Below, piece by piece: positions 2,673 through 62,363 of a DNA stretch of 64,000 nt. A program made the translations under genes and the position numbers. Position 1 is the stretch's first letter; the number at the start of each line of letters is the position of its first letter. The stretch lies in assembly GCA_964535515.1 (NCBI GenBank), contig CAZHTA010000001.1, positions 49,707 to 113,706 of the forward strand. The letters are read 5' to 3'. A model generated the notes under the pieces. That model was not told the origin of the DNA and searched no databases. It was given only the letters and a program-made list of their open reading frames with translations. Source of the DNA: an uncultured Gammaproteobacteria bacterium (lineage in GTDB: Bacteria; Patescibacteriota; Patescibacteriia; Magasanikbacterales; GWA2-37-8).

Positions 2673-2832
2673 ACAAAATAAAAACACGAACGCCGCCCCG
2701 GGTGGGACGGCGGTGTTTCTGGAATTTAGAAAGACAGGACAATGTCCACGATGGACATCAGGATGGCAGTGCCGGCGGGGATATAGAAATTATCCCATTT
2801 ACCACCTAGCACCTCAAAGACAGGGGCAGAGC
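2673..2832. repeat. Direct repeat copy 2 (functional 3' end plus terminator of the membrane-protein gene)
   Basis: Near-identical to 1187-1346. Contains the stop of the 230-aa gene and a GC-rich hairpin followed by TTTTTATTTT on the minus strand. Confidence 0.85.
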
Positions 2833-3418
2833 ACACGCCTACCGTATACACGGTTACAACATGCCAGAACCCCAGTTCCACAGGAAAGAGCGGTGTAGCA
2901 AAGTGGTAGACCCCCACCCAGATTGCAGCGATGATTCCAACCCCCAATCCGAACAGCATGCCCCCGCGCGACTTACCGTTTTTAAAACGGGGCCCCATGG
3001 GAAAACGCTTGCCCAGCTTAGAGATCGGATCTACTACCCCCAACAGCAACCCAGCCAGCGCACAGATCCAGCGTGGACAGAAAACCCAAGCCACTGTACA
3101 CCCGAGAATCGTCTGAAGGGTAGTAGTCAAATCACCGCTCTTCTCGTTGTCCCTTGTGAAATGACTCACAAAGGCCGTGACCCGGTCAGCCCAGACAGCC
3201 GAGCTACGTTGCGCTGTCTTTCTAACCACCTCGACGGCAGAGAAGACAGACGCCACGATAATCAAAGCCGCCCAAACCACCTGGTTGCCATAGAACAACG
3301 GGTGGAGCACCAGCCAGGCCGAAAGCCCGACCAAGAAGTGGAGCAACCCGCGCTTCACTTCTGTCCCTGTCGACCACTTACCCCAATGGGTGAGGTGGTC
3401 TTGCCATTCCTTTTTCAA
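2726..3418 (-). CDS. polytopic membrane protein, CTP_transf_1-like (CdsA/dolichol-kinase/CarS superfamily) candidate
   Basis: 230 aa with multiple TM helices. C-terminal DPISKLGKRFPMGPRFKNGKSRGG resembles the S..KR..G.KD.G..GHGG motif of the cytidylyltransferase family. TTG start with GGGGGAGG just upstream. High GC. Confidence 0.5.
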   Translation of the reverse strand: MKKEWQDHLTHWGKWSTGTEVKRGLLHFLVGLSAWLVLHPLFYGNQVVWAALIIVASVFSAVEVVRKTAQRSSAVWADRVTAFVSHFTRDNEKSGDLTTTLQTILGCTVAWVFCPRWICALAGLLLGVVDPISKLGKRFPMGPRFKNGKSRGGMLFGLGVGIIAAIWVGVYHFATPLFPVELGFWHVVTVYTVGVCSAPVFEVLGGKWDNFYIPAGTAILMSIVDIVLSF

Positions 3419-3489
3419 TTCCTCCCCCTTTAAGATAAATGATCTGATTCAGTTTTATCACACTGCTCAAAAAAAATCAAGATTAAAAA

Positions 3490-3535: not shown

Positions 3536-6500
3536 TTACTGTTTAAAACCAGTACCGGCTGGAATTAAACGACCGATAATCACATTCTCTTTCAAACCTT
3601 CCAAGTAGTCAACTTTACCGGTAATGGCGCTGTTGATCAATACTTTAGCGGTCTCTTGGAACGAAGCTGAAGACAAGAAACTCTGAGTGGAAAGCGCAAC
3701 GCGAGAGATGCCTAAAAGCAATTCTCGAGCAGTTGCTAAAGTACCACCATTTTTCTTGGCCAATCGATTGGCAAACTCTAACTGAGATTTTTCTACCACT
3801 TCACCTGGCAACAACTCAGTTTCACCCGCATCTTCTACGTATACACGCGAGAACATTTGTTTGATCAAAAGCTCTACGTGTTTGTCGTTCACTTTCTGAC
3901 CTTGAGAGGAGTAAATATTCTGAATCTCTTCCAATACATAGCGTTGTACTGCTGGCCGACCAGAAAGCTCAAACAATTCTTGCAAACTAATACTGCCATT
4001 TGTCATGCGCTGTCCTTTTTCCGCGACATCACCTTCTTTGACTAACATCTTGTACCCGGTTGGCACGATGTATTCACGTATTTTTGGACCGACGTAAGAC
4101 AAAGTAATATTATTCTTAACAATTTTTACCTCACTGGTATATTTAGCAGTTACTTCTTCGCCAGTAGCACCACGCACTACTATCACCTGATCTTTTTGAA
4201 CAGTATCACCATCTTTAGCCATCACTTCGTCTTCAGCAGTAACCTTGATCTTTGTTTCATCCATACCTTCAAAGTGAACACGGATGATTTTCTGACCACG
4301 ACGACCTTCAAAAATCTTTTTACCACTAGCAGAAGTAACAATTTTTCCATCGGCATCTTCTACTTCAATCTTACCCGCTACCTCAGACAAAATTGCCTTG
4401 TGCTTTGGCATGCGATTTTCAAATAACTCTTCAACGCGTGGCAAACCTTGGGTAATATCGCCTCCACCAGCCACACCACCGGCATGGAAAGTACGCAAAG
4501 TCAACTGAGTACCTGGTTCACCGATAGACTGAGCAGCAATCGTACCTACCGCTGTACCAAATTCTACTGGACGGTTATGAGCCAAATCATTACCATAGCA
4601 CTTACGACAAACACCCTTTGGTAATTTACATTGCAAAACACTACGCACATGAACTGACTCAAGTTTGTTATCATCAATCAAACGAGCAGCTTCGTCGATA
4701 ATCACCTCACCAGTTTTAACAATCGTCTTACCATCAGCTATTACATCAGCTAAAGCATAACGACCCCAAACACGATCAGATAATTTTTCACCCATCTGCT
4801 TAGATTGTTCAACAGTAAATATTTCACCAGTAGTATCGCCACAGTCATCTTCCAAAACAACAACATCTTGAGATACATCTACTAAACGACGAGTTAAGTA
4901 ACCAGCATTAGCCGTGCGAAGCGCCGTATCAGACAAACCTTTTCTCGTACCGTGAGAAGAGATGAAATATTCCAATACATCAAAACCATCTTTGTAGTTA
5001 CCTTTTACTGGCAGCTCGATAACATCACCGGATGGTGATACCACCAAACCTTTCATACCGATGACCTGACCTAACTGACCCCAGGTACCACGCGCGCCTG
5101 AATCAATCATCGCAAACACTGGACCATTCTTGTCCAAAATCTCTTGGTTATGTGCCAAGATTTTTTCTTTAGCCGTAGTCCAGATTTCCAAAATCTTAGC
5201 ATAGCGCTCAGCTTGAGTTAACAAACCTTCTTGATATTGGTCTTCCAACTCACGAATCTGTTTGTCAGCCCCTTCCAAAATCGCTGGCTTTTCTACCACT
5301 GGTGGAAAATCAGCAAAGCCTAAAGAGTAACCAGATTTAGTAACATAGCGGAAACCAAGATTTTTCAATTCATCCAAGAAGTAAGCAGTTTCCTGTTGAC
5401 CATAGTACTCAAGACAATAACGGATGATCTCGGCCAATTTTTTAGTGTTAATAGTCTCGTTGTAATATTTTAATTTTTCCGGCAAAATTTCATTAAACAA
5501 GACGCGACCAATTGTAGTCTCGATTAATAATTTATCACCTTCAGCAAATTTATTCTTTGCTTCCACGATTTTAACATTAATACGTTCGTGCAAATCAATA
5601 CGTCGGACTTTGTAAGCCAACTTAGCATCACGCTCAGAGTAAAAATATTTCTTTACTTCACCAACGTCTTTGCTTTCCGTACGAGTTAAATAGTAACAAC
5701 CCAAAGCAATATCCTGTTTAGGAGTAATAACCGGCTGGCTAGTAGCAGGTTTCAAAAGATTCTTTTCTGCAGCCATTAGGTTATCTGCTTCCCAACGTGC
5801 TTCTGCGGTTAAAGGCAAATGCACAGCCATCTGATCGCCGTCGAAATCAGCGTTAAACGCTGTACAAACCAACGGATGCAAATGAATGGCCTTACCTTCT
5901 ACGAGACGAGGGTGGAAAGCTTGGATACCAAGACGATGCAAAGTAGGAGCACGATTCAAGAATACACGAGTAGTTCTAGTTAATTCTTCCAAAATATCCC
6001 ACACTTCATCATGTTCGCCTTCAATGAAACGAGAAGCCGAACGAACATTGTGCGCTAATTCACGTTTGATAATCTCACCGATGATAAACGGTTTGAAAAG
6101 TTCCAAAGCCATGCGTTTTGGCAAACCACATTCATCAATATTTAAAGTTGGGCCAACTACGATTACGGAACGGCCAGAGTAGTCAACACGTTTACCAAGC
6201 AAGTTCTGACGGAAACGACCCTGTTTACCTTTCAAGATATCAGCTAAAGAACGCAACTGACGTTTTTGACCAGTAGCGGCGATAACCGTTTTAGAATGAC
6301 GTGCGTTGTTATCAATCAAAGCATCAACTGCTTCTTGCAACATACGCTTCTCATTACGACAGATAACCTCAGGAGCATCCAATTCTAACAAACGACGTAA
6401 ACGATTGTTGCGGTTAATTACGCGACGATACAAATCGTTCAAATCAGAAGTAGCAAAACGACCACCATCTAACGCAACCATCGGACGTAAATCTGGCGGG

Positions 6501-12861: not shown

Positions 12862-13160
12862 AAAAGTTGTTCTTATATCGAATAATTGAATTATATCCCA
12901 CCCTAAAACATAAATCAAACAAGATTGACAATTTGCCTAAAATAGGCTAATTTAGCTTGGGATAACTGGAAAAAGGAGGAAGAACTTGAGACACGTCTTG
13001 ATGTCCGTCAAGAAGCGCGGCATGAAGTTCGGACGTCGCCGGGTGTTCTAACCCCGACTTCTACGGCTACACCATCTCATATCCCCCATGCACGCCTGCT
13101 GCACTCCCATCCTGCAGGCATTCCATTTTTATAACTACTTTGGTAATTATAAAATAGAAT

Positions 13161-13194
13161 AAAAAACCACTGCTTTAAAACAGTGGTTTTTTAT
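13161..13194. terminator. bidirectional terminator T1 (degenerate copy of the guaB terminator at 16124-16156)
   Basis: aaaaaaccactgctttaaaacagtggtttttt. Lies at the left edge of high-GC island 2. Confidence 0.6.
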
Positions 13195-13367
13195 TCCCCT
13201 CATTCATCAAAATATTTTAATGAATAAGGGATGGGTGGTGTATGCGCCGGAAACACACACCCTTCCCCCCTAGGAAAGAACAGTAGCATTTCACACTGAA
13301 ACACGAACATTTCTCCGGCTATGTGAACGAGATTGAATGAGCGAAATTGAAGACCAGCGCGAACGCG

Positions 13368-15824
13368 CTAGGCCTGGTGTTCGTCGTTGGTGAGACGGGT
13401 CTTGACCTCGTCCCACACACCGGCGATGAACTCCACCGCGAGAACGGGGTTCCTGACGACGATATCGGCCACCATCGGATAGCGATTGCCGAGCATTTCG
13501 AGCAGGACCTCCACGACCTCGTGGTGCATCGCCAGCATCACGACCTTGCCGATGTCGACGAGACCGTCCGTGCGACCGGCAGGGATGAAGGACGGCGGCG
13601 GGATGAACACCATGGAGGGCGAAGCCACGCCATCTTCCATGCCATCCCGAGTTTCGGGCGGTTGGTCGAGAGCCGTATTGTCGGCGTCGTCATGTTGACC
13701 CACCAGCCCATCGGGGAACGGCTCAGCCGACTCGACGACCTCGTCGACACGACCTTCCGGCTCCCTCGACTCCTCCGACGAGATGTAACCGAACTGTGCC
13801 GACTGGAGTTGAGCGAACGCCTCGTCGTAGCCGCCTTCCCCGAAGAAACCGCTGTCCCGAATGACGTCGAGGGCGGCCTGGCCGCCATCGATCGTGGAGA
13901 AGCGCTCCCGAGGAATGGTCTCCCCGGTCACACTCTTCCACTCGTAGACGATCACGGTCGCACCACTTCCCTCGATCCGTTCGAGTTGCAGTCTACCGGC
14001 AGGAGTGGCCCTGATGGGCTCCGCCAGAACGGATTCCTGCTCGAGCACGGACTCGATGACCTCGGGGGTCGGATCGAGATCTTCGATCGGCGGCGCAACA
14101 CCCACGATGGGCACGACGTCGTTGGCCTCGGCGGGTGCCGCGGCCATCGCGTCGTCGTTGACCTCGATCGAAGCCGCGTTGGCGTCAACCAGGTCGACGA
14201 CCGCCTCGACGACAGACACCGGGGTTGGTGTAGCCGACGGAACGTAGGTGAACGGTTCATCGGTCCGGGGATGCTTGATGAACTTGATCTGACGATCAGC
14301 AACACCATCACCCACGAACTCCACGTAGCCCCAGTCACGAACCGTCCTGCAATATATCGAGGCCGAACAGGTCTCGTTCAGGTTCACCTTGGGACATTGC
14401 AGTCCCGAGATGCGCATGACCTCGGCGTAAGGCCCGGTGCGGCCATTCACGAGTTCGAACAGCTGAGCCAGACGCTCCTGCCGATCCATGCGAGCACCCG
14501 ACAACGCCGGCACCTTGGTCCAATCGAACTCGTCCACCACGATGGCGACGGGCTCGATGACCTCAGAGGTCGGCTCGAGCTCTTCAACCGGCGGCGCAGC
14601 ACTCACGATGGGCGCAGCGTCGTTGGTCTCGGCGAGGACGGGTTCTTCACGATCGGCACGCTTGCCCACGACCAGGCCGTCCAGATCTAGAACCATGTCG
14701 TTGGGATCACCCGCCCACACGAACTTGTCGGGATGATCCTTGTTGGGCTCGAGCGTTCCGTAACCCAAGTTCTCCATGAGGCGCAAAGCCTCACGGGCAC
14801 CACCCTTGTTGACGAAGCAGCCCACACCTTCCCAGTCGAGGCTGCCCCACGGCACATCCTTACCCTGGTAATGAGCGTAGAACTTCACGGCCACATCGAG
14901 GGGCGCGGAGAGCGACTCAGCGGGGCTATCGGCGTTGACCGCGACCGGCTCGGCCGTCGCCACGTTAGCGTCGGTCAAACCACCGCCGTTCGCCTCCGAT
15001 CCGACACCGAAGTCCTTGATGGCCATCGGATCGAGCAAGTAAATCTTGTGCTCGATCGTCAAGCTGTCCTGCACCTGCTTGTTCTGCAACTGGCAGAGGA
15101 CCATAACGGCCTCATCACCGGCCTTGATCAGCCGACTGTAGAGGCCCAGGATGTTGCTGGAGACAGCGTAGGTGGGGTGTTTGGTCGAACCCTTGTTCAC
15201 CACCCACTTGTGCCGTTCCATTTCCTTGAGCACTTCGACGACGAGGTTGCGCCTCTGCTGAACACCTTCCTGCTTGCCCAGGATCTCCTTGTACAGATCT
15301 CCCAGGCCGTGCTCGGCACCTTCGTCCAACACCTCCATAATGGCACCGAACAACTCGGCCTGTTTGGCCTTGCTCATGACTTGCCTCCCTTCTTGCGCTT
15401 TCATCCAGGCTTCTATCATCTCGCCTTTGTTCGAGACTCTCCTCTCTTGAGCAAGATCATCTTCGTCTTCTTCCGGGGCTTCACCTTTCGGCTCTACTCC
15501 GAGCGAAGCGAGGATCGTACGTGTGGTTTCACCTCCAGCCTTTTTTCGTTTTGCTTTCTCTGCTTGCCACTCACGCTCCTCGAAGACACCAGACGTGCCT
15601 TCTTCGGAGAACCCTTCACGATTCTTCCTTCCCTGCACGCAACGCCAACAACAGCTACGCTTTTTCTCCATCGCGTTTGCATCGAGGTAATCGTCGAGAC
15701 ATTGCTGCAACGACAACACCTTCCGGCGAGACTTGCACGGGAACGTGGTAGCCGCAAGTTGCGCCTCCAGCTCTGGACACCCTTCTCGATACGAAGGGGG
15801 AGCGAACGGATCACTCTTGTCCAT
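13368..15824 (-). CDS. large acidic hypothetical protein with internal tandem repeats (818 aa from the SD-preceded ATG), high-GC island 2
   Basis: About 62% GC. GGAGGAGGTG directly before ATG at 15824. Internal repeat NDAAPIVSAAPPVEELEPTSEVIEPV versus NDVVPIVGVAPPIEDLDPTPEVIESV. The plus-strand ORFs over the same span have R/G/H-biased junk composition. Confidence 0.6.
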   Translation of the reverse strand: MDKSDPFAPPSYREGCPELEAQLAATTFPCKSRRKVLSLQQCLDDYLDANAMEKKRSCCWRCVQGRKNREGFSEEGTSGVFEEREWQAEKAKRKKAGGETTRTILASLGVEPKGEAPEEDEDDLAQERRVSNKGEMIEAWMKAQEGRQVMSKAKQAELFGAIMEVLDEGAEHGLGDLYKEILGKQEGVQQRRNLVVEVLKEMERHKWVVNKGSTKHPTYAVSSNILGLYSRLIKAGDEAVMVLCQLQNKQVQDSLTIEHKIYLLDPMAIKDFGVGSEANGGGLTDANVATAEPVAVNADSPAESLSAPLDVAVKFYAHYQGKDVPWGSLDWEGVGCFVNKGGAREALRLMENLGYGTLEPNKDHPDKFVWAGDPNDMVLDLDGLVVGKRADREEPVLAETNDAAPIVSAAPPVEELEPTSEVIEPVAIVVDEFDWTKVPALSGARMDRQERLAQLFELVNGRTGPYAEVMRISGLQCPKVNLNETCSASIYCRTVRDWGYVEFVGDGVADRQIKFIKHPRTDEPFTYVPSATPTPVSVVEAVVDLVDANAASIEVNDDAMAAAPAEANDVVPIVGVAPPIEDLDPTPEVIESVLEQESVLAEPIRATPAGRLQLERIEGSGATVIVYEWKSVTGETIPRERFSTIDGGQAALDVIRDSGFFGEGGYDEAFAQLQSAQFGYISSEESREPEGRVDEVVESAEPFPDGLVGQHDDADNTALDQPPETRDGMEDGVASPSMVFIPPPSFIPAGRTDGLVDIGKVVMLAMHHEVVEVLLEMLGNRYPMVADIVVRNPVLAVEFIAGVWDEVKTRLTNDEHQA

Positions 15825-16123
15825 CACCTCCTCCTTCTGGTTTGGGTTTCTTTCGCATACGCCTGTACGCAAACTGCGGACACCACTTACGGGGCGACCC
15901 TTTGTTTCTCACCTCCAACATCATCCCTCCTCCCGGTGTGAAAGTTGAGTGCTAGCCTAAAACGATCGAAACCGTCTATGTTACCTTTTATATATGCAAA
16001 ACTGCCTAAGCAGTTTGTTAGGTTGGAAAAGAACTAATCGTTTCTCCTCCTTTCAGCTTTGTATTCTACATATTTAATACTAAAAGTCAACCATTCATAC
16101 TAAAACTACGCACTTCTAAAACA

Positions 16124-16156
16124 CAAAAAAACACCGCTTTAAACGGTGGTTTTTTG
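16124..16156. terminator. guaB terminator T2
   Basis: aaaaacaccgctttaaacggtggtttttt immediately downstream of the guaB stop (minus strand). Confidence 0.65.
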
Positions 16157-16170
16157 TTGCTAATTTTTTA

Positions 16171-21123: not shown

Positions 21124-21368
21124 ATATTTAAGATGAATTTTTTTAAAATTATTTTAATATATTACTAGATTGCTTTAATCTCAGAAAAAGCCACAATTTG
21201 TGCTCAGAAAACTTTTAGACCACAATATGTTGTGTAACAGCTAAAGCTCATTCATTATATCATACTCGTCAAACTGCTACCAACAAACTGCTTTTTAATG
21301 CATTTTTAGATAAAAAAACAAGGTTGAGACTCCCCCTTGCAAAAGTTATCCACAGAACTTTTTCTTGT

Positions 21369-21842
21369 TTACTCTTCTTTGTCTAACCCAAGCGAAGCCA
21401 AAATAGCTGACACCCTCTTTTCTGCTTCACTTTCTAATATTTGTCGGTCCCTAATCTGCCCCTCATCCTCCAAAACAGTAATTTCCTCGGCCAACAAAGC
21501 CACCCGCAAATCTGATAGTTCACCTCTTAAGCCCGCCAGCTTACTTTTTAGATTTGCCACGTTCTGCTGATCACGCTCTACCGAAGGGATTGATTCGTCG
21601 GCATTTAGTGCCAACTGCGCTCGAATCGCCTGGACAGCCTTAATCACCGCCTGCATATTGGCCAAGATATTCTGCATCTGTTGTTTGGTACTTTTAACCT
21701 CTTTCGATACCTGTTCTGCTCGTTCTCGAGCCGCCATCTTCTTCTCCTGTGCTTCCATCGCCGCTTCTTTAGACTCTTGACCTACCTCAAAACTCTCGGA
21801 GCGAGGGCGATTAAAATTTTCAATTTCGTTGTTAGGTGACAT
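21369..21842 (-). CDS. coiled-coil hypothetical protein
   Basis: About 157 aa, Q/E/K/A-rich heptad-like sequence. TTGTCA-18-TATAAT promoter at 21864-21893 on the minus strand just upstream. Confidence 0.5.
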   Translation of the reverse strand: MSPNNEIENFNRPRSESFEVGQESKEAAMEAQEKKMAARERAEQVSKEVKSTKQQMQNILANMQAVIKAVQAIRAQLALNADESIPSVERDQQNVANLKSKLAGLRGELSDLRVALLAEEITVLEDEGQIRDRQILESEAEKRVSAILASLGLDKEE

Positions 21843-21949
21843 ACACAAATATTTTATTAACTAATTATATCACCACTCTTCTCTCATTGACAACTGCAAA
21901 AAACAATGATTAGATAATACTGAACCACCAATGCCTCAGGAGGCACCAA

Positions 21950-22183
21950 ATGGCAACGGTCGACAGACACCCCACCGGCGCACATCGACAGTCGTACAGC
22001 GACAACCGGAACCATCTGTTCGAGCGGCGCAAGAAGAAGCGGGCCAACGCTGCCGCACGAGCGAAGATCCCCCTCGAGCGGCGCCTCGCGGCCGAGAAGG
22101 CCTGGCGCAACATGCCGGGTGGCGTCCTGCCGAGCTTCGCACGGCCGGAACAGACCCACTACATGTCGCGGTATGGGTACTAG
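21950..22183 (+). CDS. small basic protein (77 aa), high-GC island 3
   Basis: AGGAGG 7 nt upstream of ATG. Sensible composition. The overlapping 131-aa ORF in another frame is R/P/A junk. Confidence 0.5.
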   Translation: MATVDRHPTGAHRQSYSDNRNHLFERRKKKRANAAARAKIPLERRLAAEKAWRNMPGGVLPSFARPEQTHYMSRYGY

Positions 22184-22359
22184 ACCAGAGCACCCAACGT
22201 GCACTACACTCCTCCCGACCTAGGGCATTCCACTATGCCCGAGATCACAGGAACTCCCGTTCCTGCTTCGATCTCAAAAGCAAAAAATATTTTTTTACTT
22301 TTGAGAAAGCAGGAACAAAACAATAGGACAATTCGCATATATGCGAATTGTTTTTTAAT

Positions 22360-22390
22360 CTTTACAATAAAAACTCGAAAGCATATAATA
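22360..22390 (+). promoter_or_regulatory. ruvB promoter TTTACA-17-TATAAT, with the 20-bp palindrome aattcgcatatatgcgaatt just upstream (22331-22350)
   Basis: Read directly. The ATG at 22399 sits about 3 nt after the predicted TSS, so the mRNA would be leaderless. Confidence 0.5.
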
Positions 22391-22398: not shown

Positions 22399-23427
22399 AT
22401 GACCGATACTGACGACCGCCTAGTGGCGGCAGAAGAAAATACGGAAGAGACTTTCTTAGACCGAGCGCTCCGCCCTGAGACCTTAGGTGATTTTATTGGC
22501 CAAAATAATATTAAGCAGAACTTAGAGGTGGCCCTGACCGCTACTAAAAATCGCGGCGACGTTTTAGAACATATCATGCTCTATGGCAACCCTGGTCTAG
22601 GAAAAACCACCCTCGCTCACATCATCGCCCGTGAAATGGGTAGTAATATTAAAATCATCGCTGGTCCAACTTTAGAAAAAGTTGGTGATCTAGCTGCCAT
22701 CCTATCTAACCTTCAGCAAGGCGACATCTTGTTTATCGATGAAATCCACCGCTTAAACAAAACTATCGCTGAGGTCCTCTACCCGGCCCTAGAAGATTTT
22801 GTCTTAGACATCATAATCGGCCAAGGACCAGCTGCTCGCACTATCCGTATGCCAATTGCTCCATTTACCCTGATTGGCGCTACCACAAAGATGAGCTTGC
22901 TACCTGGACCACTACGCGATCGCTTTGGGCATGTGTACCATTTAAATTTTTACGAACCAGAAGAGATTGAAACTATTGTCGGCAGAAGTGCTAAGTTGTT
23001 ACAAATAACAATTGAACCAACCGCCGTAAAATTAATCTCCACTCGTGCCAGGCGCACACCTCGTATTGCCAACCGACTTTTAAAACGTGTTCGCGATTAT
23101 GCCGAAGTACATACGGATGCTGTAATCAACGAAACCTCTGCTCTTGGCGCTTTAGAAATGTTAGCAATTGACGAATTAGGCCTAGACGAAATTGATCGCC
23201 ATCTTTTAAATACCTTAATTGAAAAATTTAATGGTGGACCAACCGGCCTAAACACTTTAGCGGCGTCTGTAGCCGAAGAAATGGATACCATTGAAACCGT
23301 CTACGAACCATACCTTTTACAGTTAGGATTTTTAGAACGTACCCCCCGCGGACGTAAAGCTTCACCCGCTGCTTACAAACATTTAGGGCATATTGTCCCA
23401 CCGGGACAAACTAATGCTAATTATTAA
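22399..23427 (+). CDS. ruvB: Holliday junction branch migration helicase RuvB
   Basis: Walker A GNPGLGKTTLA, sensor and RuvB C-terminal domain. The ORF-track start at 22348 lies inside the promoter, so start moved to 22399. Confidence 0.93.
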   Translation: MTDTDDRLVAAEENTEETFLDRALRPETLGDFIGQNNIKQNLEVALTATKNRGDVLEHIMLYGNPGLGKTTLAHIIAREMGSNIKIIAGPTLEKVGDLAAILSNLQQGDILFIDEIHRLNKTIAEVLYPALEDFVLDIIIGQGPAARTIRMPIAPFTLIGATTKMSLLPGPLRDRFGHVYHLNFYEPEEIETIVGRSAKLLQITIEPTAVKLISTRARRTPRIANRLLKRVRDYAEVHTDAVINETSALGALEMLAIDELGLDEIDRHLLNTLIEKFNGGPTGLNTLAASVAEEMDTIETVYEPYLLQLGFLERTPRGRKASPAAYKHLGHIVPPGQTNANY

Positions 23428-35916: not shown

Positions 35917-35969
35917 ATTAAAAACAAAGGAAATAAAAAACCACCATACTTAAAACGGTGGTTTTTTAT
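35917..35969. terminator. bidirectional terminator T3: 21-bp perfect inverted repeat arms
   Basis: caaaggaaataaaaaaccacc-atacttaaaac-ggtggttttttatttcctttg. Sits at the left edge of high-GC island 4. Confidence 0.65.
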
Positions 35970-36059
35970 TTCCTTTGTCGACAAAGTGAAGTGCCGGAGA
36001 GAATGCCGGCTCACTATCACCTCTATTGAATAGCCGAGGGACAGGCCAAGAAAGAACTA

Positions 36060-37373
36060 CTACTCCTTTTCCAAAATTTGAAACCAGGGAAGGATCGAGC
36101 GGTCCGTACGGTGATAAGGACCACGTGCCGGAAGGGTAAAGGAGGGGTTGTTGGCAAGCAACCGATACGTCTCCGGATCAACACGCCGCACTGCCGTGCC
36201 TTCGTCATACTCCTTCTTCACTACCGTACCAGCCGAATACTCATTAAGCAGTATTACTGGCAAAGCAGAAATCGGATGATGCCTGTGCACTTGCGGCATG
36301 ATTTCTTCGAACAGAAGCTGGGAGTGATTAGCCAACAACTCCGACAACACACGCAAGACTTCACGCGTGATGATCGGGCCCATGGCCAAGCAATGCTTCC
36401 CGACGAATTCGGTGACACGCGACTGAAGAACTCCCGAGCTAAACGATCCGATCGCCTTGAGCAAGTTCCAGAGCCAGGCGGTAGTATGGCGATGGCTACC
36501 GTCCGTATTGCACCCATACTCATTCACCACGATAGGAGCAAACCCGTTCTTGTACAAGCTCTGGAGCTCTTGGATAATACGCGCCGGCACCACCAGCTCA
36601 GTTGCCTTGATGGAAGCGAGCCCGACTTCTCCAACCTCAATCCACATGCCGCGATAAACACCCCGACTATGAATATTGAGATTGTAAGAATACTGTCGAT
36701 AACTCGCTGCTGCCTCCAACTCAAAAGCTACGCTCAACCCGCAATTCTCTTTACCAACAACTGACATAGTGTTCTCTGCCCACAAAAGCGTATCGCGATT
36801 GTAGACCATCCTACCGTGTTGGTCCCAAGCCTGACGCACCAACGACAGAACTTTGGCTACGCCATCATCGTGCGCCTGGTGCAGATTGCGCCGCAGCTCT
36901 TCAACATACGCCTGCCAACCAACATCACTCCGCGGCAGCGTTTGAACGACGACGGGACTCAAGACAAAGATGTCCGGCTCTGCCACACCCGACCAATCCC
37001 ACGACGGCAGCTTACGCTCTGCCACGGTCGTTACTGGCTGATGATTCCCAACAACCGGAATCCCCGCGAACTTCGAAAGCTCCTGGAAGCGACTCCATTC
37101 CAAAGCGCCGGCATTAATCTGACAACTACCGCCCGGACCAGGCAAGGTATGCCCGGGAAAGCGCGTCAGACACTGTACCCCCGGCATCACGAGCGCCGTC
37201 CCAACTCGGGAAGAAATGAACTCGCACTCACACCCACTAATCGGATCCGCGAACAGATCATTCTCCTGCTTGATCTGTTTCACGCCCTTCTGCTGTTGAT
37301 ACTGTCCCACGTCTGGCTCCCGAAAGCGACACGACGACTTGAATCCGGGCAAGAGCAACGCACCCTCTCGCAT
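36060..37373 (-). CDS. hypothetical protein (437 aa from the SD-preceded ATG), high-GC island 4
   Basis: GCAGGAGGAGGGAAC then ATG at 37373. About 60% GC. The plus-strand ORFs over it are compositional junk. No family recognised. Confidence 0.6.
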   Translation of the reverse strand: MREGALLLPGFKSSCRFREPDVGQYQQQKGVKQIKQENDLFADPISGCECEFISSRVGTALVMPGVQCLTRFPGHTLPGPGGSCQINAGALEWSRFQELSKFAGIPVVGNHQPVTTVAERKLPSWDWSGVAEPDIFVLSPVVVQTLPRSDVGWQAYVEELRRNLHQAHDDGVAKVLSLVRQAWDQHGRMVYNRDTLLWAENTMSVVGKENCGLSVAFELEAAASYRQYSYNLNIHSRGVYRGMWIEVGEVGLASIKATELVVPARIIQELQSLYKNGFAPIVVNEYGCNTDGSHRHTTAWLWNLLKAIGSFSSGVLQSRVTEFVGKHCLAMGPIITREVLRVLSELLANHSQLLFEEIMPQVHRHHPISALPVILLNEYSAGTVVKKEYDEGTAVRRVDPETYRLLANNPSFTLPARGPYHRTDRSILPWFQILEKE

Positions 37374-37447
37374 GTTCCCTCCTCCTGCTTTTTTAAACAA
37401 AAACACCCGCCAGCCTTGGCGAGTATTTTGTTCAAAAACTAATACCA

Positions 37448-37486
37448 CTACCAAGCAACCGGCCCTGTCCCGGTGGTAGTAGCGGT
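37448..37486. repeat. hairpin element H1 (direct-repeat partner of 38254-38296)
   Basis: ctaccaagcaaccggccctgtcccggtggtagtagcggtag versus ctaccgcctcaaagagagagctgaacggtggtagtagttgtag. Shared CTACC...CGGTGGTAGTAG. Confidence 0.5.
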
Positions 37487-38203
37487 AGTCAATTTTTGAA
37501 TTTCATTTACTATTTTTTCAAAACCAATAATTTTTAATTTATTCATCTCATCAACTGATAACAAAAAATTTAAAGTTGGTAATAATGATGGTACAGAAAC
37601 AAAATATTTTGACTCCTTAAATACTTTTTCTCGTTGTACAACTCCGCCAAAACCAACAAAAATACCCACTTCACTTGCCGCTTCCCAGTCAGCCACACTA
37701 TCACCCACCAACGCTAATCTTCCACCTTTTTGTTTTTCTTGCTGTAACACTTTTGTTTTACCGCAATCCTGAGCCAGCAACGAACTAGTATTAAAATTAG
37801 AAAAATTTTCATCCCCATCAAAAAATATCTCATTGGCGATAATACTGCTCTCGTCTAACCCAAGCTTTTTCGCCACCGGTAAAATCATTGGGTGAAAATT
37901 AGCTGACAAAATATATACCTGCTTATCTAAAGCACACAATATTTTTATTACCTCTACTGCTCCATCTACCAACAAACCAACACACTCCTGTGCCACAAGA
38001 TCGAGATCGTTTTTTGTCGGAGCAATCAACTGCATTTTTTCTATAAAAATATCAGCAAAAGCCACTTCGCCATCCATCGAACGTTTCGTCATAACAGCAA
38101 CTTTTTCTCCCACCCCCCGGCGCGAACCTAACAAATCCAAACTTTCCGCTTTAATCAAAGTGCTATCAAAATCAAAATATATTTTATTGATTGTTTCATT
38201 CAT
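37448..38203 (-). CDS. HAD-superfamily hydrolase (phosphatase)
   Basis: Motif I FDFDSTL, motif III/IV ...K...GDSVAD. The last about 14 codons (KLTTATTTGTGPVAW) are encoded by GC-rich island-boundary sequence. Confidence 0.75.
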   Translation of the reverse strand: MNETINKIYFDFDSTLIKAESLDLLGSRRGVGEKVAVMTKRSMDGEVAFADIFIEKMQLIAPTKNDLDLVAQECVGLLVDGAVEVIKILCALDKQVYILSANFHPMILPVAKKLGLDESSIIANEIFFDGDENFSNFNTSSLLAQDCGKTKVLQQEKQKGGRLALVGDSVADWEAASEVGIFVGFGGVVQREKVFKESKYFVSVPSLLPTLNFLLSVDEMNKLKIIGFEKIVNEIQKLTTATTTGTGPVAW

Positions 38204-41840: not shown

Positions 41841-42461
41841 TTAATTCCACATACACCACGGCAAAGCTATGCACGGACCTTCAGTCCCCATACTTGCACA
41901 CATACTAGAGAAATTCTCTAGCTGGCCAGTACACTTAAAGGCTGGGGCAACGGCCATCCCGTTCCATTCACATGCCGAACTCAAACATTCTGCCTGAAGC
42001 TTAGGGTTGCAAATAGTACTCACGCTAGTACCTGGTTTTATAGTACAAGTGTTAGCGGTTGGCACACCAGGATTAATACCCGAATTAACCTCTTCCGTCA
42101 CCTTCCCTGCCCCCACCTTCCCTAACACAAAATTCGTAATCGCATAAGCCATAGAAATGACTGCCAAACCGATAATTGCGGCTTCTAGTATGTTTTTGGC
42201 TTTGGTTACGTGTTCTTCATTGCCTTGGGCAGTCATCCAACGAATACCGGCGTATAGAACCAGAATAAAAAAGACAAAATAAACCAAATACAACGCCGTA
42301 TTGATAATTGTGGTTGTTACAGACTCTGGCGTATCATTTTTGCTATAGCTTGTCTTGCTAACAGTCTCATCTAATCCATACTGCGCCTTAACCGGTGTTA
42401 ATCCAAACAAAAAAACCGCTAACAAAAATACGGGCAAAAGTAATAAAAGATATTTATTCAT
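41841..42461 (-). CDS. secreted two-helix VirB2/TrbC-like (T4SS-pilin-like) family protein, paralog 1 (Cys-rich C-terminal domain)
   Basis: Signal peptide MNKYLLLLLPVFLLAVFLFG. Conserved hairpin LYAGIRWMTAQGNEEHVTKAKNILEAAIIGLAVISMAYAITNFV, shared with 8 paralogs at 44036-48910. Confidence 0.55.
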   Translation of the reverse strand: MNKYLLLLLPVFLLAVFLFGLTPVKAQYGLDETVSKTSYSKNDTPESVTTTIINTALYLVYFVFFILVLYAGIRWMTAQGNEEHVTKAKNILEAAIIGLAVISMAYAITNFVLGKVGAGKVTEEVNSGINPGVPTANTCTIKPGTSVSTICNPKLQAECLSSACEWNGMAVAPAFKCTGQLENFSSMCASMGTEGPCIALPWCMWN

Positions 42462-42557
42462 AATTAAATATTTACCCTTAAATAATACCATAACTTGATT
42501 TTTTTTACAAAACATACTATTATATTGACACTTACCCCAAATGGATATTGAATATTT

Positions 42558-42629
42558 GCCCTCATAGTTTAATGGATAAAACACGACCCTTCTAAGGTTG
42601 AGTTGTATGTTCGATTCCTGCTGGGGGCA
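42558..42629 (+). tRNA. tRNA-Arg (anticodon TCT), one T-stem mismatch (coordinates +/-1)
   Basis: gccctca-ta-gttt-aatggata-aaac-a-cgacc-cttctaa-ggttg-agttg-gtatg-ttcgatt-cctgc-tgggggc-a. Acceptor contains a G-U pair. Confidence 0.6.
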
Positions 42630-42690
42630 CGGGTAGTTGAAAAATTATATATATTAAGATATAATCTCAACTAAGATAAAGTCCTGGTAG

Positions 42691-42768
42691 GGGTGTCCTT
42701 GGTATAACGGTTATTACGTCGGTTTGTGGAACCGACAACACGGGTTCGACTCCCGTAGGACACCCCCA
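42691..42768 (+). tRNA. tRNA-His (anticodon GTG) with encoded G-1 and CCA
   Basis: g-ggtgtcc...gtcggt-ttgtgga-accgac...cgggttcgactcccg-ggacacc-c-cca. Confidence 0.85.
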
Positions 42769-42783
42769 CCCGGATTTTTTAAA

Positions 42784-42814
42784 AGACCTCGATTTTATTC
42801 GAGGTCTTTTGTTT
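42784..42814. terminator. terminator hairpin, near-identical copy of the rpoC terminator
   Basis: aaaagacctcgattttattcgaggtctttt versus aaaagaccccgattttttcgaggtctttt at 3497-3527. Overlaps the last codons of the glycosyltransferase gene. Confidence 0.55.
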
Positions 42815-43931
42815 TTAATATTTTCTGTAATATTTCTTCCACACCATTTCCAAATGATAATAGCTTTATTCTTTCTAATATTTTTATATACCCCTCTTCA
42901 TCAGAAAAAAAACTACTTACTGTTTGTGATAACCGCCAAATCCTTGGTTCATACTTGCCATACTTGTTGTCCACCACAAAATCACGATTGCCTTTCTCCT
43001 GTCCCCAGATATAGCTAGTTAAAATTATTGGACGACCAATAATTAAAGATTCAAAAACTACTGCCGGTCCCGCTTTGCCTACCACCAAATCTGCTGCCTC
43101 CATTAATTCTTCCACGTTCTCTGCAAAACCAACAACTGATAATATTTTACTTGGGTAACTGCTTCGTAAACGACTCGCTTGTTCAAAAAATTTCTGCTCT
43201 CGCCCACAAACGACAATTAAACAAAAGTCGTCAGACAAATCTACTAGTGAACGAACAACCTCTCCTCCTTTATACATTCCATCACCACCACCAGCCACTA
43301 AGACTATCTTTTTATCAAGCGGCAAACCTAACTTTCTCCGCATCTCCATCTTGTCCGATACACGCGTCTGCAAAAACTTTTTGTTTATCAACGGTGCTGT
43401 CACGAAAACATTCTTTTCTCCAACACCCTGCTCGAGGGCTATCTTTTTTGCTAATTCGGAAAAAACAAAATATTTAATCTCTTTTTCAAAAAACCAAACT
43501 CGTGGTACAGAAAAAGGATCAGTTACAACCGACCACACTTCTGTCTGTGGACTTACCTTTCTAACAGCCGTTAAAAGTGGCGGGGTAATAAAAAAATACA
43601 ACGAAATTACAATGTCAAATTTGCCCTCTTTTACTAGGCTATCCATGTGCTTTTGATTGCGAAACATGTTCACAAACAAATACATTGCCCAAGAATATTG
43701 CGAGATCCAATAAAACATCCACCACAGTAATATGAAATGATTGCTGTTAATCCACAACGCATACCCCTTGTGTAACAACCATTTAGACAACCTATTACTC
43801 TCAGCTCCAGCATCAACTAAAACAGACTGAGCTAACCCAGAATATTTTTCTTCTATCTCTTTGGCTAACGCTTTAGCAGCACCACTGTGCCCACCACCAG
43901 CATTAACGTAAAATATACCTATCTTTTTCAT
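42795..43931 (-). CDS. GT28-family diacylglycerol glycosyltransferase (MGDG synthase/UgtP-like)
   Basis: N-terminal KKIGIFYVNAGGGHSGAAKAL and C-terminal MurG-like domain. Confidence 0.7.
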   Translation of the reverse strand: MKKIGIFYVNAGGGHSGAAKALAKEIEEKYSGLAQSVLVDAGAESNRLSKWLLHKGYALWINSNHFILLWWMFYWISQYSWAMYLFVNMFRNQKHMDSLVKEGKFDIVISLYFFITPPLLTAVRKVSPQTEVWSVVTDPFSVPRVWFFEKEIKYFVFSELAKKIALEQGVGEKNVFVTAPLINKKFLQTRVSDKMEMRRKLGLPLDKKIVLVAGGGDGMYKGGEVVRSLVDLSDDFCLIVVCGREQKFFEQASRLRSSYPSKILSVVGFAENVEELMEAADLVVGKAGPAVVFESLIIGRPIILTSYIWGQEKGNRDFVVDNKYGKYEPRIWRLSQTVSSFFSDEEGYIKILERIKLLSFGNGVEEILQKILKTKDLE

Positions 43932-44035
43932 AATCGAAACAAACGAAAGAAATGAAAAAAATGATTATTCATTCCCAAACAAGTAAAAACTATATATTTC
44001 AAAACTCTCCTTTTCTAAGGAGAGTCTAACGATGA

Positions 44036-44500
44036 TTAAGGACAAGATAAACCATGACATTCAATCGTGCCACGTTGTTCTATATACTGAATATTTTCAT
44101 AATCAGTCCACCGGCCAAATACGATCTTTGCTACCATTAAAGTAATAGAATAAGCAGAAACAATAATTGCCAGACCAATAGTTGCTTGAAATAACAAAGT
44201 TTTTGATTTAGTTACCTTTTCTTCATTACCACCAGCCGTCATCCACAAAAATCCAGCATACAATGTTAAGACAATAAATATTATACCAATAAACTCTAAC
44301 GCTGTCCGAATAATATTAACAACAGTTACACGTGGATCTTGAGCTTCACCAAACCCTGCCCCTTTTTCTCCAGCAGCTGCCTGCAGCTGCTCAGCAATCT
44401 GAGCTTGAGTACTGCTTGCCGCAGCATTTACCAAAGAAAACGACAAAGCACTTCCCAAAAAGACCAAAGATATAAACAAAAAAACAAAAACCTTTTTCAT
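44036..44500 (-). CDS. VirB2/TrbC-like family paralog 2
   Basis: Signal peptide MKKVFVFLFISLVFLGSALS. Hairpin LYAGFLWMTAGGNEEKVTKSKTLLFQATIGLAIIVSAYSITLMV. Start moved to the internal ATG. Confidence 0.55.
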   Translation of the reverse strand: MKKVFVFLFISLVFLGSALSFSLVNAAASSTQAQIAEQLQAAAGEKGAGFGEAQDPRVTVVNIIRTALEFIGIIFIVLTLYAGFLWMTAGGNEEKVTKSKTLLFQATIGLAIIVSAYSITLMVAKIVFGRWTDYENIQYIEQRGTIECHGLSCP

Positions 44501-44507
44501 AAAACAA

Positions 44508-45008
44508 TTACTTAAAACCATTTTTAAACTCCTGCCAGCCACTACTCCAACCCCGACCAAAACCATCCCAAAAGCCTGTATCACTAGAAGGTGTAGCAGC
44601 ACCAACTGCTGAGCCGCTACCCTGAGCTCCACCAACCGTATACACCACCACAAAAGCCGTAATACCATAAGCTGCTACGACTATTATCAAACCGATAACT
44701 GCCATCTTTAAAATATTTGTTGCCTTAGTAACTTGTTCTTCGTTACCACTAGCAGTCATCCACAAAAACCCAGCATAAACTGTTAGAGCTAAAAAAAGTG
44801 TACCAACCAGCGTCATCGCTATCTTGATAATTCCGCCAACTTTTTCTGACAAAGCAGTCCCGCTCTCGTCGCTCTTATCATACCCAGCCTGTGCCGCAAC
44901 CTTGCCGGTCAACTCATTAATATTTGGTGCTGCTAAAACTGGTACAGCTATCAAAAAAACAAAAAGCGAGAGAAGGGCAGAGGTGATAATTTTACTTTTT
45001 AATTTCAT
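44508..45008 (-). CDS. VirB2/TrbC-like family paralog 3 (Gly/Trp-rich tail)
   Basis: MKLKSKIITSALLSLFVFLIAVPVLA...VYAGFLWMTASGNEEQVTKATNILKMAVIGLIIVVAAYGITAFV. Confidence 0.55.
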   Translation of the reverse strand: MKLKSKIITSALLSLFVFLIAVPVLAAPNINELTGKVAAQAGYDKSDESGTALSEKVGGIIKIAMTLVGTLFLALTVYAGFLWMTASGNEEQVTKATNILKMAVIGLIIVVAAYGITAFVVVYTVGGAQGSGSAVGAATPSSDTGFWDGFGRGWSSGWQEFKNGFK

Positions 45009-45024
45009 AAATTTATTTACTAAC

Positions 45025-45459
45025 CTACAAACACTGCTTAATTGTTGTACTACAAGTTTGACCACCCGAACAATCTGATGTGGTCGCACATGTTGTTGGT
45101 CCTGTCCCACCACCTGCCAACCTACCTGTAACAAAACTAGTGATTGCATAAGCGGCCATGGTAATAACCAAACCAATAATTGCAGCAATAATAATATTCT
45201 TTGATTTGGTAACTTTTTCTTCATTGCCCTGAGCAGTCATCCAAAGAATACCAGCGTAGACAGTTAAAATTAAAAATATTGTACCAACTAAAGCCAATGC
45301 ACCAGAAATAATAGTACCAACCGAAGTCTCTAAACTAGCTTCTAAGCCGGTTTGTTTGCCAACTTCCCCTAATTTTGTTGCCGCACTGTTCCATTGTGCT
45401 GAAGCAGAAAAAGGTAATAGCAACAGACAAACCGAAAGGAGTAAAAATATTTTTTTCAT
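45025..45459 (-). CDS. VirB2/TrbC-like family paralog 4 (Cys-rich tail)
   Basis: MKKIFLLLSVCLLLLPFSASA...VYAGILWMTAQGNEEKVTKSKNIIIAAIIGLVITMAAYAITSFV...CATTSDCSGGQTCS. Confidence 0.6.
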   Translation of the reverse strand: MKKIFLLLSVCLLLLPFSASAQWNSAATKLGEVGKQTGLEASLETSVGTIISGALALVGTIFLILTVYAGILWMTAQGNEEKVTKSKNIIIAAIIGLVITMAAYAITSFVTGRLAGGGTGPTTCATTSDCSGGQTCSTTIKQCL

Positions 45460-45472
45460 AATTTATAAAATG

Positions 45473-46060
45473 TTATTTACAACAAACATTTAAATCACCG
45501 CCTGTACAAAGACTTAAAGCACATTTATCTGAATTATTAGAGCATGCAGTACGTTTAGTTGATGTCGTGGCATCAGCAGCAAATGGCGGCAAACCACAAC
45601 TACCAATATCTTTACAAGTAAAACCAGGTTTTGTTTTCGCACATGTCTCTGCCGTCACCTCTCCAGCCGGTGTACTGCTAGTTTTCGTTCCCAAACTAGT
45701 GAAAACAAAATTCGCAATCGCGTAAGCACCGCCCACCAAAACTAGACCAATAATTGCTCCTTCAATAATATTTTTTGCTTTAGTGACTTGTTCGGTATTG
45801 CCCATTGCTGTCATCCAAGTAAAACCAGCATATAAGATTAAAACAAAAAAGATAATACCGATAAAAGACAAGGCAATATTAATCACTACACCAATAACAG
45901 CCGCCGGTGTTCCCATTTTAGCAATTTTTGTATCTTTTAATCCCGCCTTATCCGCTGCTACTCCAGCACCATAAGTAGGATCTGCTGCTGCCAAAACAAA
46001 AATTGGAGACAACAAAATTAAGGCGAGAACAAACGCAATCAATATTTTTTTAATATACAT
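45473..46060 (-). CDS. VirB2/TrbC-like family paralog 5 (Cys-rich tail)
   Basis: MYIKKILIAFVLALILLSPIFVLAAA...LYAGFTWMTAMGNTEQVTKAKNIIEGAIIGLVLVGGAYAIANFV...8 Cys in the tail. Confidence 0.55.
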   Translation of the reverse strand: MYIKKILIAFVLALILLSPIFVLAAADPTYGAGVAADKAGLKDTKIAKMGTPAAVIGVVINIALSFIGIIFFVLILYAGFTWMTAMGNTEQVTKAKNIIEGAIIGLVLVGGAYAIANFVFTSLGTKTSSTPAGEVTAETCAKTKPGFTCKDIGSCGLPPFAADATTSTKRTACSNNSDKCALSLCTGGDLNVCCK

Positions 46061-46171
46061 ATTTATCTTATATATTGGACACTGGAAAAAATACCTTCTT
46101 TCCACTAGCCAATAAAACTTCTTCCAACAGGGGGTTGCGCGCGCGAACCCCCTGTAGAAAGATAAAAACTA

Positions 46172-46645
46172 TTATGGGTTAAGGGTAGCTGTAACCAACT
46201 GGGTAATAACAAAGCTAGCTAAAGCGTAAGCGGACAAGATAATAGCTAAACCGATAATACCAGAAAAAATCCATTTCTTTGCCTCTCCTACTTTTTCTTC
46301 GTTACCACCAGCGGTCATCCAAGTGAAACCACCAATCAAGATGATAACAACTGCTACGATACCAAGTAAGCTCATGGCTGTACGAATAATACTAGCGATA
46401 GTAGTACGCACATCCTTAGAACCTAAACCGGTGTCAGCACCATAGTAAAGACCTAAAGAAGTAGCACTAATATCATTATTAGTACTAGCGGCAGCGGTAC
46501 ATGCTACTGGAGGTGTGCCTTGCATTGTCCCAACGGCTGCACCGCCAGTACAAACCGCAGCGCTCACCATTGATGGACTCATAACAATACCTAAACCTGC
46601 CACCAACATTACACTCAAAACGATAGTCGATAAAATTTTCTGCAT
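46172..46645 (-). CDS. VirB2/TrbC-like family paralog 6 (variable domain N-terminal)
   Basis: AAGGGGG SD before ATG at 46645. IGGFTWMTAGGNEEKVGEAKKWIFSGIIGLAIILSAYALASFV. Confidence 0.55.
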   Translation of the reverse strand: MQKILSTIVLSVMLVAGLGIVMSPSMVSAAVCTGGAAVGTMQGTPPVACTAAASTNNDISATSLGLYYGADTGLGSKDVRTTIASIIRTAMSLLGIVAVVIILIGGFTWMTAGGNEEKVGEAKKWIFSGIIGLAIILSAYALASFVITQLVTATLNP

Positions 46646-60510: not shown

Positions 60511-60590
60511 TCCACAATTTTACCCCCTTGCTCTTCAAACCATTACCCGATATAATACGGGTACTTTAATTTAAATTTTAAATTTACACT

Positions 60591-61652: not shown

Positions 61653-61666
61653 ACTAAATCTAAAAA

Positions 61667-61700
61667 CAAAAACACTTCCCGATTTGGGGAGTGTTTTTTT
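61667..61700 (+). terminator. recA terminator (direct-repeat copy A)
   Basis: caaaaacacttcccgatttggggagtgttttttt. Confidence 0.7.
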
Positions 61701-61743
61701 GTTTCTTTGCCTAGCGAAACTGATTGTATTTATTGGGTAAAGC

Positions 61744-61771: not shown

Positions 61772-61915
61772 TATGCTATTATATCCTGTTCTTTAAAAAC
61801 TATATCCCTTTTGGCAAAAGACGTAAATTATAAAATATTTACTTTTTCTACCAGAAGGGACAACGTACCAATCGCCAGTGGCGAGTATGGCGTGCCCCTT
61901 GAATTGAGGACTAAA

Positions 61916-62293: not shown

Positions 62294-62363
62294 GACCTCA
62301 CGGGTTCGGTAGCGCAATTCTTGCGCAAACACGAACCTGTGAATTCACACAGTTCTTAACACC

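Follow-up and report, generated by a model that had tools for sequence, protein, structure and literature searches.

Horizontal gene transfer is reported for Patescibacteria, as are genomic islands that make up as much as 13% of genome length (PMC12455944). Here we describe a small GC-rich islet in a 64,000-nt stretch of contig CAZHTA010000001.1 (the window; positions are counted from its first nucleotide), where it lies between the divergent promoters of a coiled-coil protein gene (cc) and of ruvB. The window has the composition of a genome of about 40% GC, and the relatives of its RuvB place it in Candidatus Magasanikbacteria (Patescibacteria, Candidate Phyla Radiation (CPR)). Like the described islands, the islet is deviant in composition, absent from the orthologous site of close relatives and endowed with a single accessory gene without assigned function. 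Unlike them it is tiny (one gene of 77 codons), no donor or homologue was found, and the GC content at third codon positions (GC3) is 0.83-0.94 in two diverged copies despite saturated third positions, which means that it is not ameliorating. A description of GC-rich orphan islets in CPR bacteria was not found in the literature, which does confirm islands and horizontal transfer in Patescibacteria. We consider it fairly probable that the islet is foreign DNA in which one small orphan gene is followed by a conserved 3' stem-loop module and by a terminator. In kind it is ordinary, an accessory orphan gene, and it is mildly interesting as part of a wider islet phenomenon.

Individual elements of the locus recall other known systems. 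LexA boxes are of the GAAC-N4-GTTC type, the core sites of integron attC elements read RYYYAAC ... GTTRRRY, and arginine-rich-motif RNA-binding peptides of the lambda N type carry a short, very basic helical segment. A palindrome near the ruvB promoter resembles a LexA/SOS operator upstream of ruvAB; however, it does not recur, is not conserved at ruvB orthologues, is off the consensus, lies upstream of the -35 element and is followed by a T run. With a stem of 10-13 bp, a loop of 4 nt and a U tract directly behind it, downstream of a co-oriented open reading frame (ORF), the same palindrome is similar to a Rho-independent terminator. It differs from the native terminators of the window, which are built of an A tract, a GC core and a T tract (e.g. 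13157-13196, 35924-35978), in its AT-rich stem with only four G-C pairs and in that the islet-free spacer already possessed the right arm and the T run. The arrangement of a short ORF and, behind it, an imperfect hairpin (about 58 nt) whose small bulge is conserved is reminiscent of an integron gene cassette (ORF plus attC), but the polarity of the core sites is wrong, the element is single-copy and no array or integrase was seen, although no search for recombinases was made nearby. Finally, the 77-aa protein shares with lambda N-type peptides a basic helical Ala/Arg/Lys/Trp segment (ERRLAAEKAWRN), with a hairpin and a terminator downstream. In contrast to those peptides it matches no family (Pfam, PHROGs, NCBIfam, PDB), no boxB-like small GNRA-type loop was identified, and ruvB has its own promoter after the terminator.

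The cc-ruvB spacer with and without the islet

Homologues of cc adjoin ruvB in 17 Magasanikbacteria loci. In L001, the locus of the closest GTDB relative, the two divergent genes are 49 nt apart; in L002-L007, L010, L013 and L036 their distance is about 45-115 nt. In L082, a JGI contig whose cc is 73% and whose ruvB 5' end is 83% identical to the window, a spacer of 113 nt represents the empty site: GC-rich segment, hairpin and left palindrome arm are all missing. What this spacer has in common with the window is the cc promoter, the right arm of the palindrome plus the T run (ACATGCGAACTGTTTTTT in L082, matching ATATGCGAATTGTTTTTT in the window) and the ruvB promoter. Two further assemblies (P0006, P0011) are of the same empty type. 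Because the L082 site keeps only the flanking parts, the insert can be delimited to about 21898-22340; its size is put at roughly 430 nt (410-440 nt). Judged by this comparison, the cc promoter is native sequence, the ruvB promoter is ancestral, and the islet is a lineage-restricted, compositionally foreign insert into a short divergent promoter spacer.

The high-GC patch that the original prediction had placed between the two promoters was recovered as described (Table 1). As expected for a horizontally acquired islet, its GC content and GC3 are both atypical (GC3 of 0.83 in the 77-aa ORF vs 0.39 in ruvB), and the orthologous site is empty in relatives of the L082 type and the L001 type. GC skew is negative over the whole window. 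No donor and no homologues elsewhere were detected among the databases searched. An 8-nt direct repeat, AAAACAAT, flanks most of the insert and is a candidate for a target-site duplication or for microhomology only; chance alone should produce a few repeated 8-mers in a stretch of 560 nt, and its presence is near this expectation.

A homologous islet was reached through members of the RuvB cluster in L086 (Logan assembly of SRR22388057), whose RuvB is 92% identical to that of the window. Its cc-ruvB spacer is 505 nt long, and both flanks of the islet are perfectly syntenic with the window. From the identities of cc and ruvB the branching order is (L001,(window,(L086,L082))), which implies either an old islet with a loss in the L082 type or more than one gain. 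Alignment of window and L086 over 4.3 kb revealed 95% identity for the ruvB promoter, 90% for the long hairpin, 90% for the palindrome with its T run and 82% for the ruvB coding sequence (proportion of synonymous differences (pS) 0.61). The ORF core reached 65%, the ORF C-terminus 42% with indels, and the GC-rich 3' untranslated region (UTR) 42%. The GC-rich part is thus the fastest-evolving stretch of the alignment, and the conservation of the AT-rich 3' block equals that of housekeeping sequence. The AT-rich leader with the possible islet promoter is absent in L086. The three states found in closely related CPR lineages (intact, 5'-truncated and empty) represent a clean natural experiment on the entry and exit of orphan genes in tiny genomes.

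The 77-codon reading frame and its predicted protein

Length is uninformative for this ORF, as five overlapping ORFs of at least 67 aa can be found in the GC-rich patch. Above chance are its Shine-Dalgarno (SD) motif, an in-phase codon periodicity and a cross-species signal. The original prediction of an SD-driven 77-aa protein stands, with exactly the same translation and with the SD at the distance from the ATG listed in Table 1. GC contents at the three codon positions are 0.63, 0.51 and 0.83, like those of other island genes; the GC3 periodicity follows the phase of the ORF and weakens after its end, and among the six frames this one scores highest when the codon table of the other island genes is applied. 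Comparison with L086 over 39 codons (core alignment DNRNHLFERRKKKRANAAARAKIPLERRLAAEKAWRNMP in the window, QNRDWLFHRRRAKQANAAERAKIPREERRAAERAWAALP in L086) gave a ratio of non-synonymous to synonymous substitution rates (dN/dS) of 0.36 in this frame vs 0.98-1.69 in the other five, a contrast of low statistical power at 39 codons and two sequences. Identical aa amount to 62% in this frame and to 37-50% in the others. Differences are distributed over the codon positions as 13/11/19 (third-position enrichment, P = 0.046). In the same frame L086 has a GC3 of 0.94, and both copies end in ...GY-TAG. Because of the GC3 phase, the codon-table rank, the dN/dS of 0.36 and this common end, we take the frame to be protein-coding now or until recently, so that it is or recently was translated.

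The predicted protein has an isoelectric point of 11.2, with 17 lysine or arginine residues among its 77. A single-sequence AlphaFold2 model showed helices at residues 16-38 and 42-53 with a predicted local distance difference test score (pLDDT) of about 90 in the centre and disordered ends, which suggests a two-helix (helix-turn-helix) hairpin. An in-frame 11-nt repeat, TCGAGCGGCGC, at 22020 and 22074 (54-nt spacing) marks both (F/L)ERR helix starts. Since the protein is very basic and is predicted to form a two-helix hairpin, nucleic-acid binding is plausible as its most likely activity.

Searches with the protein revealed no family in Pfam, PHROGs and NCBIfam, nothing by tblastn among phages and plasmids, nothing in JGI metagenomes and IMG/VR, and no Foldseek match of the model in the PDB. 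A two-sequence profile of window and L086 found no match in the PDB or in viral contigs, and no profile of known DNA- or RNA-binding families (Pfam, NCBIfam, PHROGs, PDB) matched the protein. The original prediction had named the lack of any homologue as a ground for giving up the ORF. This is largely what was found: the databases hold none, and the sole relative, that of L086, came to light through synteny.

Stem-loops upstream of the ruvB promoter

The palindrome originally described as 20 bp long and abutting the ruvB -35 element is real and perfect, but it lies 1 nt further upstream than stated (22330-22349), extends to 24 nt (ACAATTCGCATA/TATGCGAATTGT, 22328-22351) leading into TTTTTT, and is close to the -35 element without touching it, ending 9 nt before TTTACA. 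Its free energy is -14.4 kcal/mol (z = -5.5 vs shuffles). On the transcribed strand the stem-loop is directly followed by the U tract, 145 nt after the TAG of the co-oriented + strand ORF. In L086 it is 90% conserved with one arm mismatch. The left arm is found only in the two genomes with an upstream + strand unit, window and L086, whereas the right arm and T run are already present in the islet-free L082, in which the T run may be an UP-like element.

A search for TTCGCATATATGCGAA with up to 3 mismatches gave one occurrence in the 64 kb, and a relaxed pattern occurred at chance level. Nothing like the palindrome was detected upstream of recA (60591), where the original prediction had proposed to look, and it is absent upstream of ruvB in L001-L007, L036, L082 and others, being present only in the islet-bearing L086. 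The palindrome does not match LexA boxes of the type given above, and a reading as a dif site was likewise rejected on the sequence. The earlier proposal of an operator for SOS-type control of ruvB thus found no support, and the palindrome is largely what had been named as refuting it, namely unique and not conserved. Because it is unique, absent at recA and at other ruvB genes, followed by a T run and called by a terminator scan, the palindrome is best read as an intrinsic terminator of an islet transcript that would also insulate the ruvB promoter, rather than as an operator. For ruvB biology the outcome is negative, with an ancestral promoter retained behind a predicted terminator. The -10 region of the recA promoter lies inside a different inverted repeat, TACCCG-ATATAATA-CGGGTA with an 8-nt spacer (60544-60563), which is a candidate operator unrelated to the palindrome near ruvB.

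The long hairpin upstream of the palindrome is likewise real and, as described, imperfect; its span is 22259-22316 instead of the 22258-22318 given originally. It has arms of 22 and 19 nt, a 3-nt CGA bulge and an AT-rich apex, with a free energy of about -26 to -30 kcal/mol (z = -6.5 vs shuffles). No T run follows it on the 3' side, and it is therefore not a canonical terminator. The block conserved between window and L086 starts at segment A (GAGATCACAGGAAC), which can pair with the B arm in place of the C arm. The A:B hairpin has -15 to -17 kcal/mol in window and L086 alike. One A:B pair is changed on both sides, from A-U in the window to G-C in L086, and the same change produces a C.A mismatch in B:C of L086. 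Going by this conservation, the A/B/C block matters or is at least protected. No further copies of the hairpin or the palindrome were found in the window, the fetched loci or viral contigs, and a repeated element was rejected on these grounds. The hairpin as an attC site was rejected as well, because its ends read GTTCCTG ... CAGGAAC on both strands and do not give the core sites. Covariance models of Rfam gave no match to the islet at gathering thresholds and sub-threshold matches only to generic hairpin-type microRNA models, a scan for tRNA and tmRNA found none, and the folding of the islet by itself was at the level of shuffled sequence (z = -1.0 and -1.5); on these results a structured RNA gene was rejected.

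Taken as a transcription unit, the islet, inserted into the divergent cc/ruvB spacer, carries one complete small gene (strong SD, ATG, 77 codons, TAG). Its transcript probably starts at a putative weak TTGACA-N20-GATAAT promoter, whose -35 region would be common with the cc promoter. The product would be a fast-evolving, highly basic two-helix protein with a putative nucleic-acid-binding activity. The transcript would end in the 3' module, where B pairs with A or C, and the palindrome with its U tract would stop islet transcription 9 nt before the unchanged ruvB promoter, which would leave ruvB under its own control.

Several observations weigh against this reconstruction. The 20-nt spacer of the + strand promoter is non-optimal and exceeds what the consensus scan accepts, and the scan did not report this promoter. 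The L086 copy is without SD and start codon: about 66 nt are missing, among them some 16 N-terminal codons, an in-frame TAA stands just upstream of the remaining ORF and no start follows it, so that the translation signals intact in the window (AGGAGG and ATG) are not intact in all copies. L082-type genomes are without the whole islet. Because the start is lost in L086 and the islet is absent in the L082 type, the 77-aa gene appears accessory and dispensable; by these sequences it is dispensable or decaying in at least one lineage. To the low power of the dN/dS comparison is added the lack of homologues: a k-mer/HMMER search of a 5.8-billion-sequence protein collection found none, and neither did phmmer against 1.84 billion representatives, in which the sole match (P0001) was spurious and repeat-inflated. 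Nor is the 77-aa sequence among the proteins recorded for this NCBI assembly in the protein collection, in which other proteins of the assembly are present; a small protein-coding gene with comparative support is thus missing from the assembly's recorded proteins. The conservation of the long hairpin is not explained by termination, as it has no U tail. Moreover, single-sided stem changes at five positions of hairpin and palindrome (one in the window, four in L086) all give C.A on the + (ORF) strand and G.U on the minus strand. This pattern may hint at a minus-strand RNA or single-stranded DNA structure and is confounded by the strong strand compositional skew.

Table 1. Positions of features at the cc-ruvB locus, in window coordinates
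Feature	Position	Strand	Remarks
cc (coiled-coil protein gene)	21369-21842	-	ORF; divergent neighbour of ruvB, kept in relatives
cc promoter TTGTCA, 18-nt spacer, TGnTATAAT	21864-21893	-	11/12 consensus positions; same elements in islet-free L082
Possible weak promoter of islet gene	21887-21918	+	TTGACA 21887-21892, 20-nt spacer, GATAAT 21913-21918; read from sequence
8-nt direct repeat AAAACAAT, left copy	21900-21907	.	right copy 22317-22324; 409 nt (21908-22316) in between
GC-rich islet	21921-22258	+	GC 55-78% (genome ~40%); absent at orthologous site in L082-type and L001-type relatives; homologous 69% GC islet in L086
Shine-Dalgarno AGGAGG	21938-21943	+	6 nt before ATG
77-aa basic orphan protein gene	21950-22183	+	TAG stop; translation as originally predicted
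Segment A GAGATCACAGGAAC	22241-22254	+	complementary to B arm; direct repeat of segment C (22303-22316)
Long imperfect hairpin	22259-22316	+	B arm 22259-22275, AT-rich inner hairpin 22272-22306, C arm 22303-22316
Palindrome + T6, read as intrinsic terminator	22328-22356	+	terminator scan: 13 pairs, 4-nt loop, T tail
ruvB promoter	22361-22389	+	TTTACA 22361-22366, 17-nt spacer, TATAAT 22384-22389; promoter scan; near identical in L082
ruvB	22399-23427	+	Pfam RuvB_N, AAA_lid_4, RuvB_C

The product of cc matched no Pfam family. Between the 3' end of cc and the region upstream of a class II ribonucleotide reductase gene, a perfect DnaA-box-like 9-mer, TTATCCACA, is present at 21346-21354, and L001 carries the same 9-mer at the equivalent place.

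Alternative readings and other GC-rich islets

The abrupt GC jump inside a metagenome-assembled contig could suggest an assembly chimera, to which we give next to no weight: an artefact is excluded because the independent L086 assembly, from another run, holds a homologous islet at the same site, the flanks are perfectly syntenic, and similar islets occur in many independent metagenome-assembled genomes. It is also very improbable that the 77-aa protein acts as a DNA-binding regulator, with the palindrome as its operator or as a LexA operator for SOS-type control of ruvB. The basic, predicted helical protein and the position of the palindrome 9 nt upstream of the -35 element would suit such a model, and L086 largely keeps the arms while the centre varies, which would also fit a dimer-binding site. 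However, besides its uniqueness in the 64 kb, its absence upstream of recA (which has another inverted repeat over its -10) and upstream of ruvB in all islet-free relatives and its mismatch to LexA boxes, the palindrome leads straight into T6, has the score of a terminator and lies upstream of the -35 element, clear of the promoter core; L086 retains it despite the lost ORF start. A smaller but real chance remains with an inert relic, foreign DNA that was for example integrated illegitimately and whose ORF was coding in the donor and is neither expressed nor used here. The lack of homologues, the weak promoter, the 5' truncation in L086, the absence in the L082 type and the position of the islet as the least conserved stretch of the 4.3-kb alignment all agree with a relic, and the GC3 periodicity could come from the donor. 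Against it, the translation signals in the window are intact (SD at ideal spacing, ATG, and TAG in a genome seldom using TGA), dN/dS is 0.36 in the 77-aa frame alone, and GC3 is high in both copies although third positions are saturated (19/39 differ), unlike neutral decay in an AT-rich genome.

Two other readings shift the function from the protein to the 3' structures. In one, the conserved AT-rich block composed of the A/B/C stem-loop and the terminator hairpin (~22239-22357) is the functional unit, as a 3'-UTR-derived or antisense small RNA or as a switch, with the ORF secondary. Between window and L086 the block is 88-95% identical (65% for the ORF core, 42% for the rest of the 3' UTR), and L086 retains it in spite of its missing ORF start. 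Both sequences preserve the A:B pairing, one pair of which has changed in a compensatory manner (A-U to G-C), and all stem mismatches are G.U on the minus strand. We nevertheless regard this as unlikely, as no Rfam family matches, the promoter scan gave none for an independent transcript on either strand, the comparison comprises two sequences with one covarying pair, and neither L082-type genomes nor the viral contigs searched contain the block; for the G.U bias on the minus strand, a replication-strand mutation bias may be the whole explanation, given the window-wide negative GC skew. Less likely still is a small mobile cassette, be it a miniature inverted-repeat transposable element, an insertion sequence derivative or an integron-like element with the hairpin as recombination site. 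It would account for the arrangement of one ORF and, behind it, a long imperfect hairpin whose 2-3-nt bulge is conserved, for the 8-nt direct repeat on either side of 21908-22316, for the GC-rich single-gene islet without homology to this one that occupies the same position next to cc in L015 and for the different genomic context of the island-1 protein family in L081 (both described below). Yet the polarity of the hairpin ends is opposite to the R''/R' boxes of attC, the islet ends carry no terminal inverted repeats, no second copy was found in the window, 86 loci or viral contigs, and the 8-mer repeat is near chance. Foreign DNA with one small orphan gene, a conserved 3' module and a terminator thus remains the reading that we prefer.

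The window contains at least six GC-rich orphan islets, including the one described here (island 3). Five further islets with 51-66% GC lie at 1800-2440, 2700-3420, 13200-15950, 36000-37500 and 61800-62400, with main ORFs of 184, 230, 834/818, 464 and ~125-189 aa, respectively. None of these ORFs matched a Pfam family, and three that were also scanned against PHROGs and NCBIfam gave no match. The 184-aa protein of island 1 has a single homologue in the 5.8-billion-sequence collection, which is found in L081, again in a GC-rich islet of a 39% GC CPR contig and in another gene context; the 818-aa protein matches only itself in that collection. Similar islets are present in the loci of relatives. 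In the L015 islet (4900-5400, 66% GC), a GAGGAGG SD precedes an ORF that ends in TAG and whose 111-aa Cys-rich product has a signal of the lipoprotein type (LGGC). Homology between the 5' flank of this islet and that of the window islet was not significant, with only promoter and SD motifs in common.

Island ORFs of the window, L015, L031, L042, L081 and L086 end in TAG in about 9 of 12 cases, vs 68% TAA, 19% TAG and 13% TGA for native stops across the loci (26 TAA, 4 TAG and 1 TGA for native long ORFs in the window). By a crude count, 27 of the 31 native long ORFs are without an SD motif before the first start codon. C<->G changes make up 11 of 19 third-position differences in the 77-aa gene and 12 of 40 in the island-1 family vs 10 of 149 in ruvB. 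Because these differences are rich in C<->G, either GC3 is being kept up or the divergence of the copies took place within a GC-rich donor pool. We tentatively consider, as a possibility well short of probable, a pool of single-gene GC-rich islets in Magasanikbacteria and other ~40% GC CPR bacteria. Such islets would have a GC3 of 0.7-0.95, mostly TAG stops, often a strong SD and no homologues outside the group; they would stay GC-rich through saturating divergence, move between contexts and settle recurrently next to cc. Island 3 would be one unit of this pool, and its three-segment hairpin, as an RNA switch or a recombination/maintenance site, could together with the arginine-rich peptide modulate termination before ruvB. 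If the pattern is general, unameliorated GC-rich orphan genes in AT-rich Patescibacteria need explaining; a GC-rich donor pool, selection on GC3 and a biased repair process are candidate explanations for the persistent GC.

Native bidirectional terminators with an A tract, a GC core, a T tract and perfect arms of up to 22 bp adjoin several islets (13157-13196, 16123-16157, 35924-35978, 61662-61704). With such terminators directly beside them, the islets show a preference for gene ends or intergenic spacers. Two repeats, one of 161 nt with 99% identity (1187-1347 / 2672-2832) and one of 128 nt with 87% identity (1404-1531 / 1894-2021), duplicate the 3' ends of the island genes 1884-2438 and 2726-3418, which suggests recent recombination or duplication among islets. 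Elsewhere in the window, at 42125-46331, a family of 125-158-nt repeats with 60-70% identity, spaced about 500 nt apart, probably corresponds to a repeated protein domain. In L001 (611-5146) the ribonucleotide reductase has 1511 aa compared with 1147 aa in the window, and the extra 364 aa form a mid-protein insert that is intein-like with a homing-endonuclease part.

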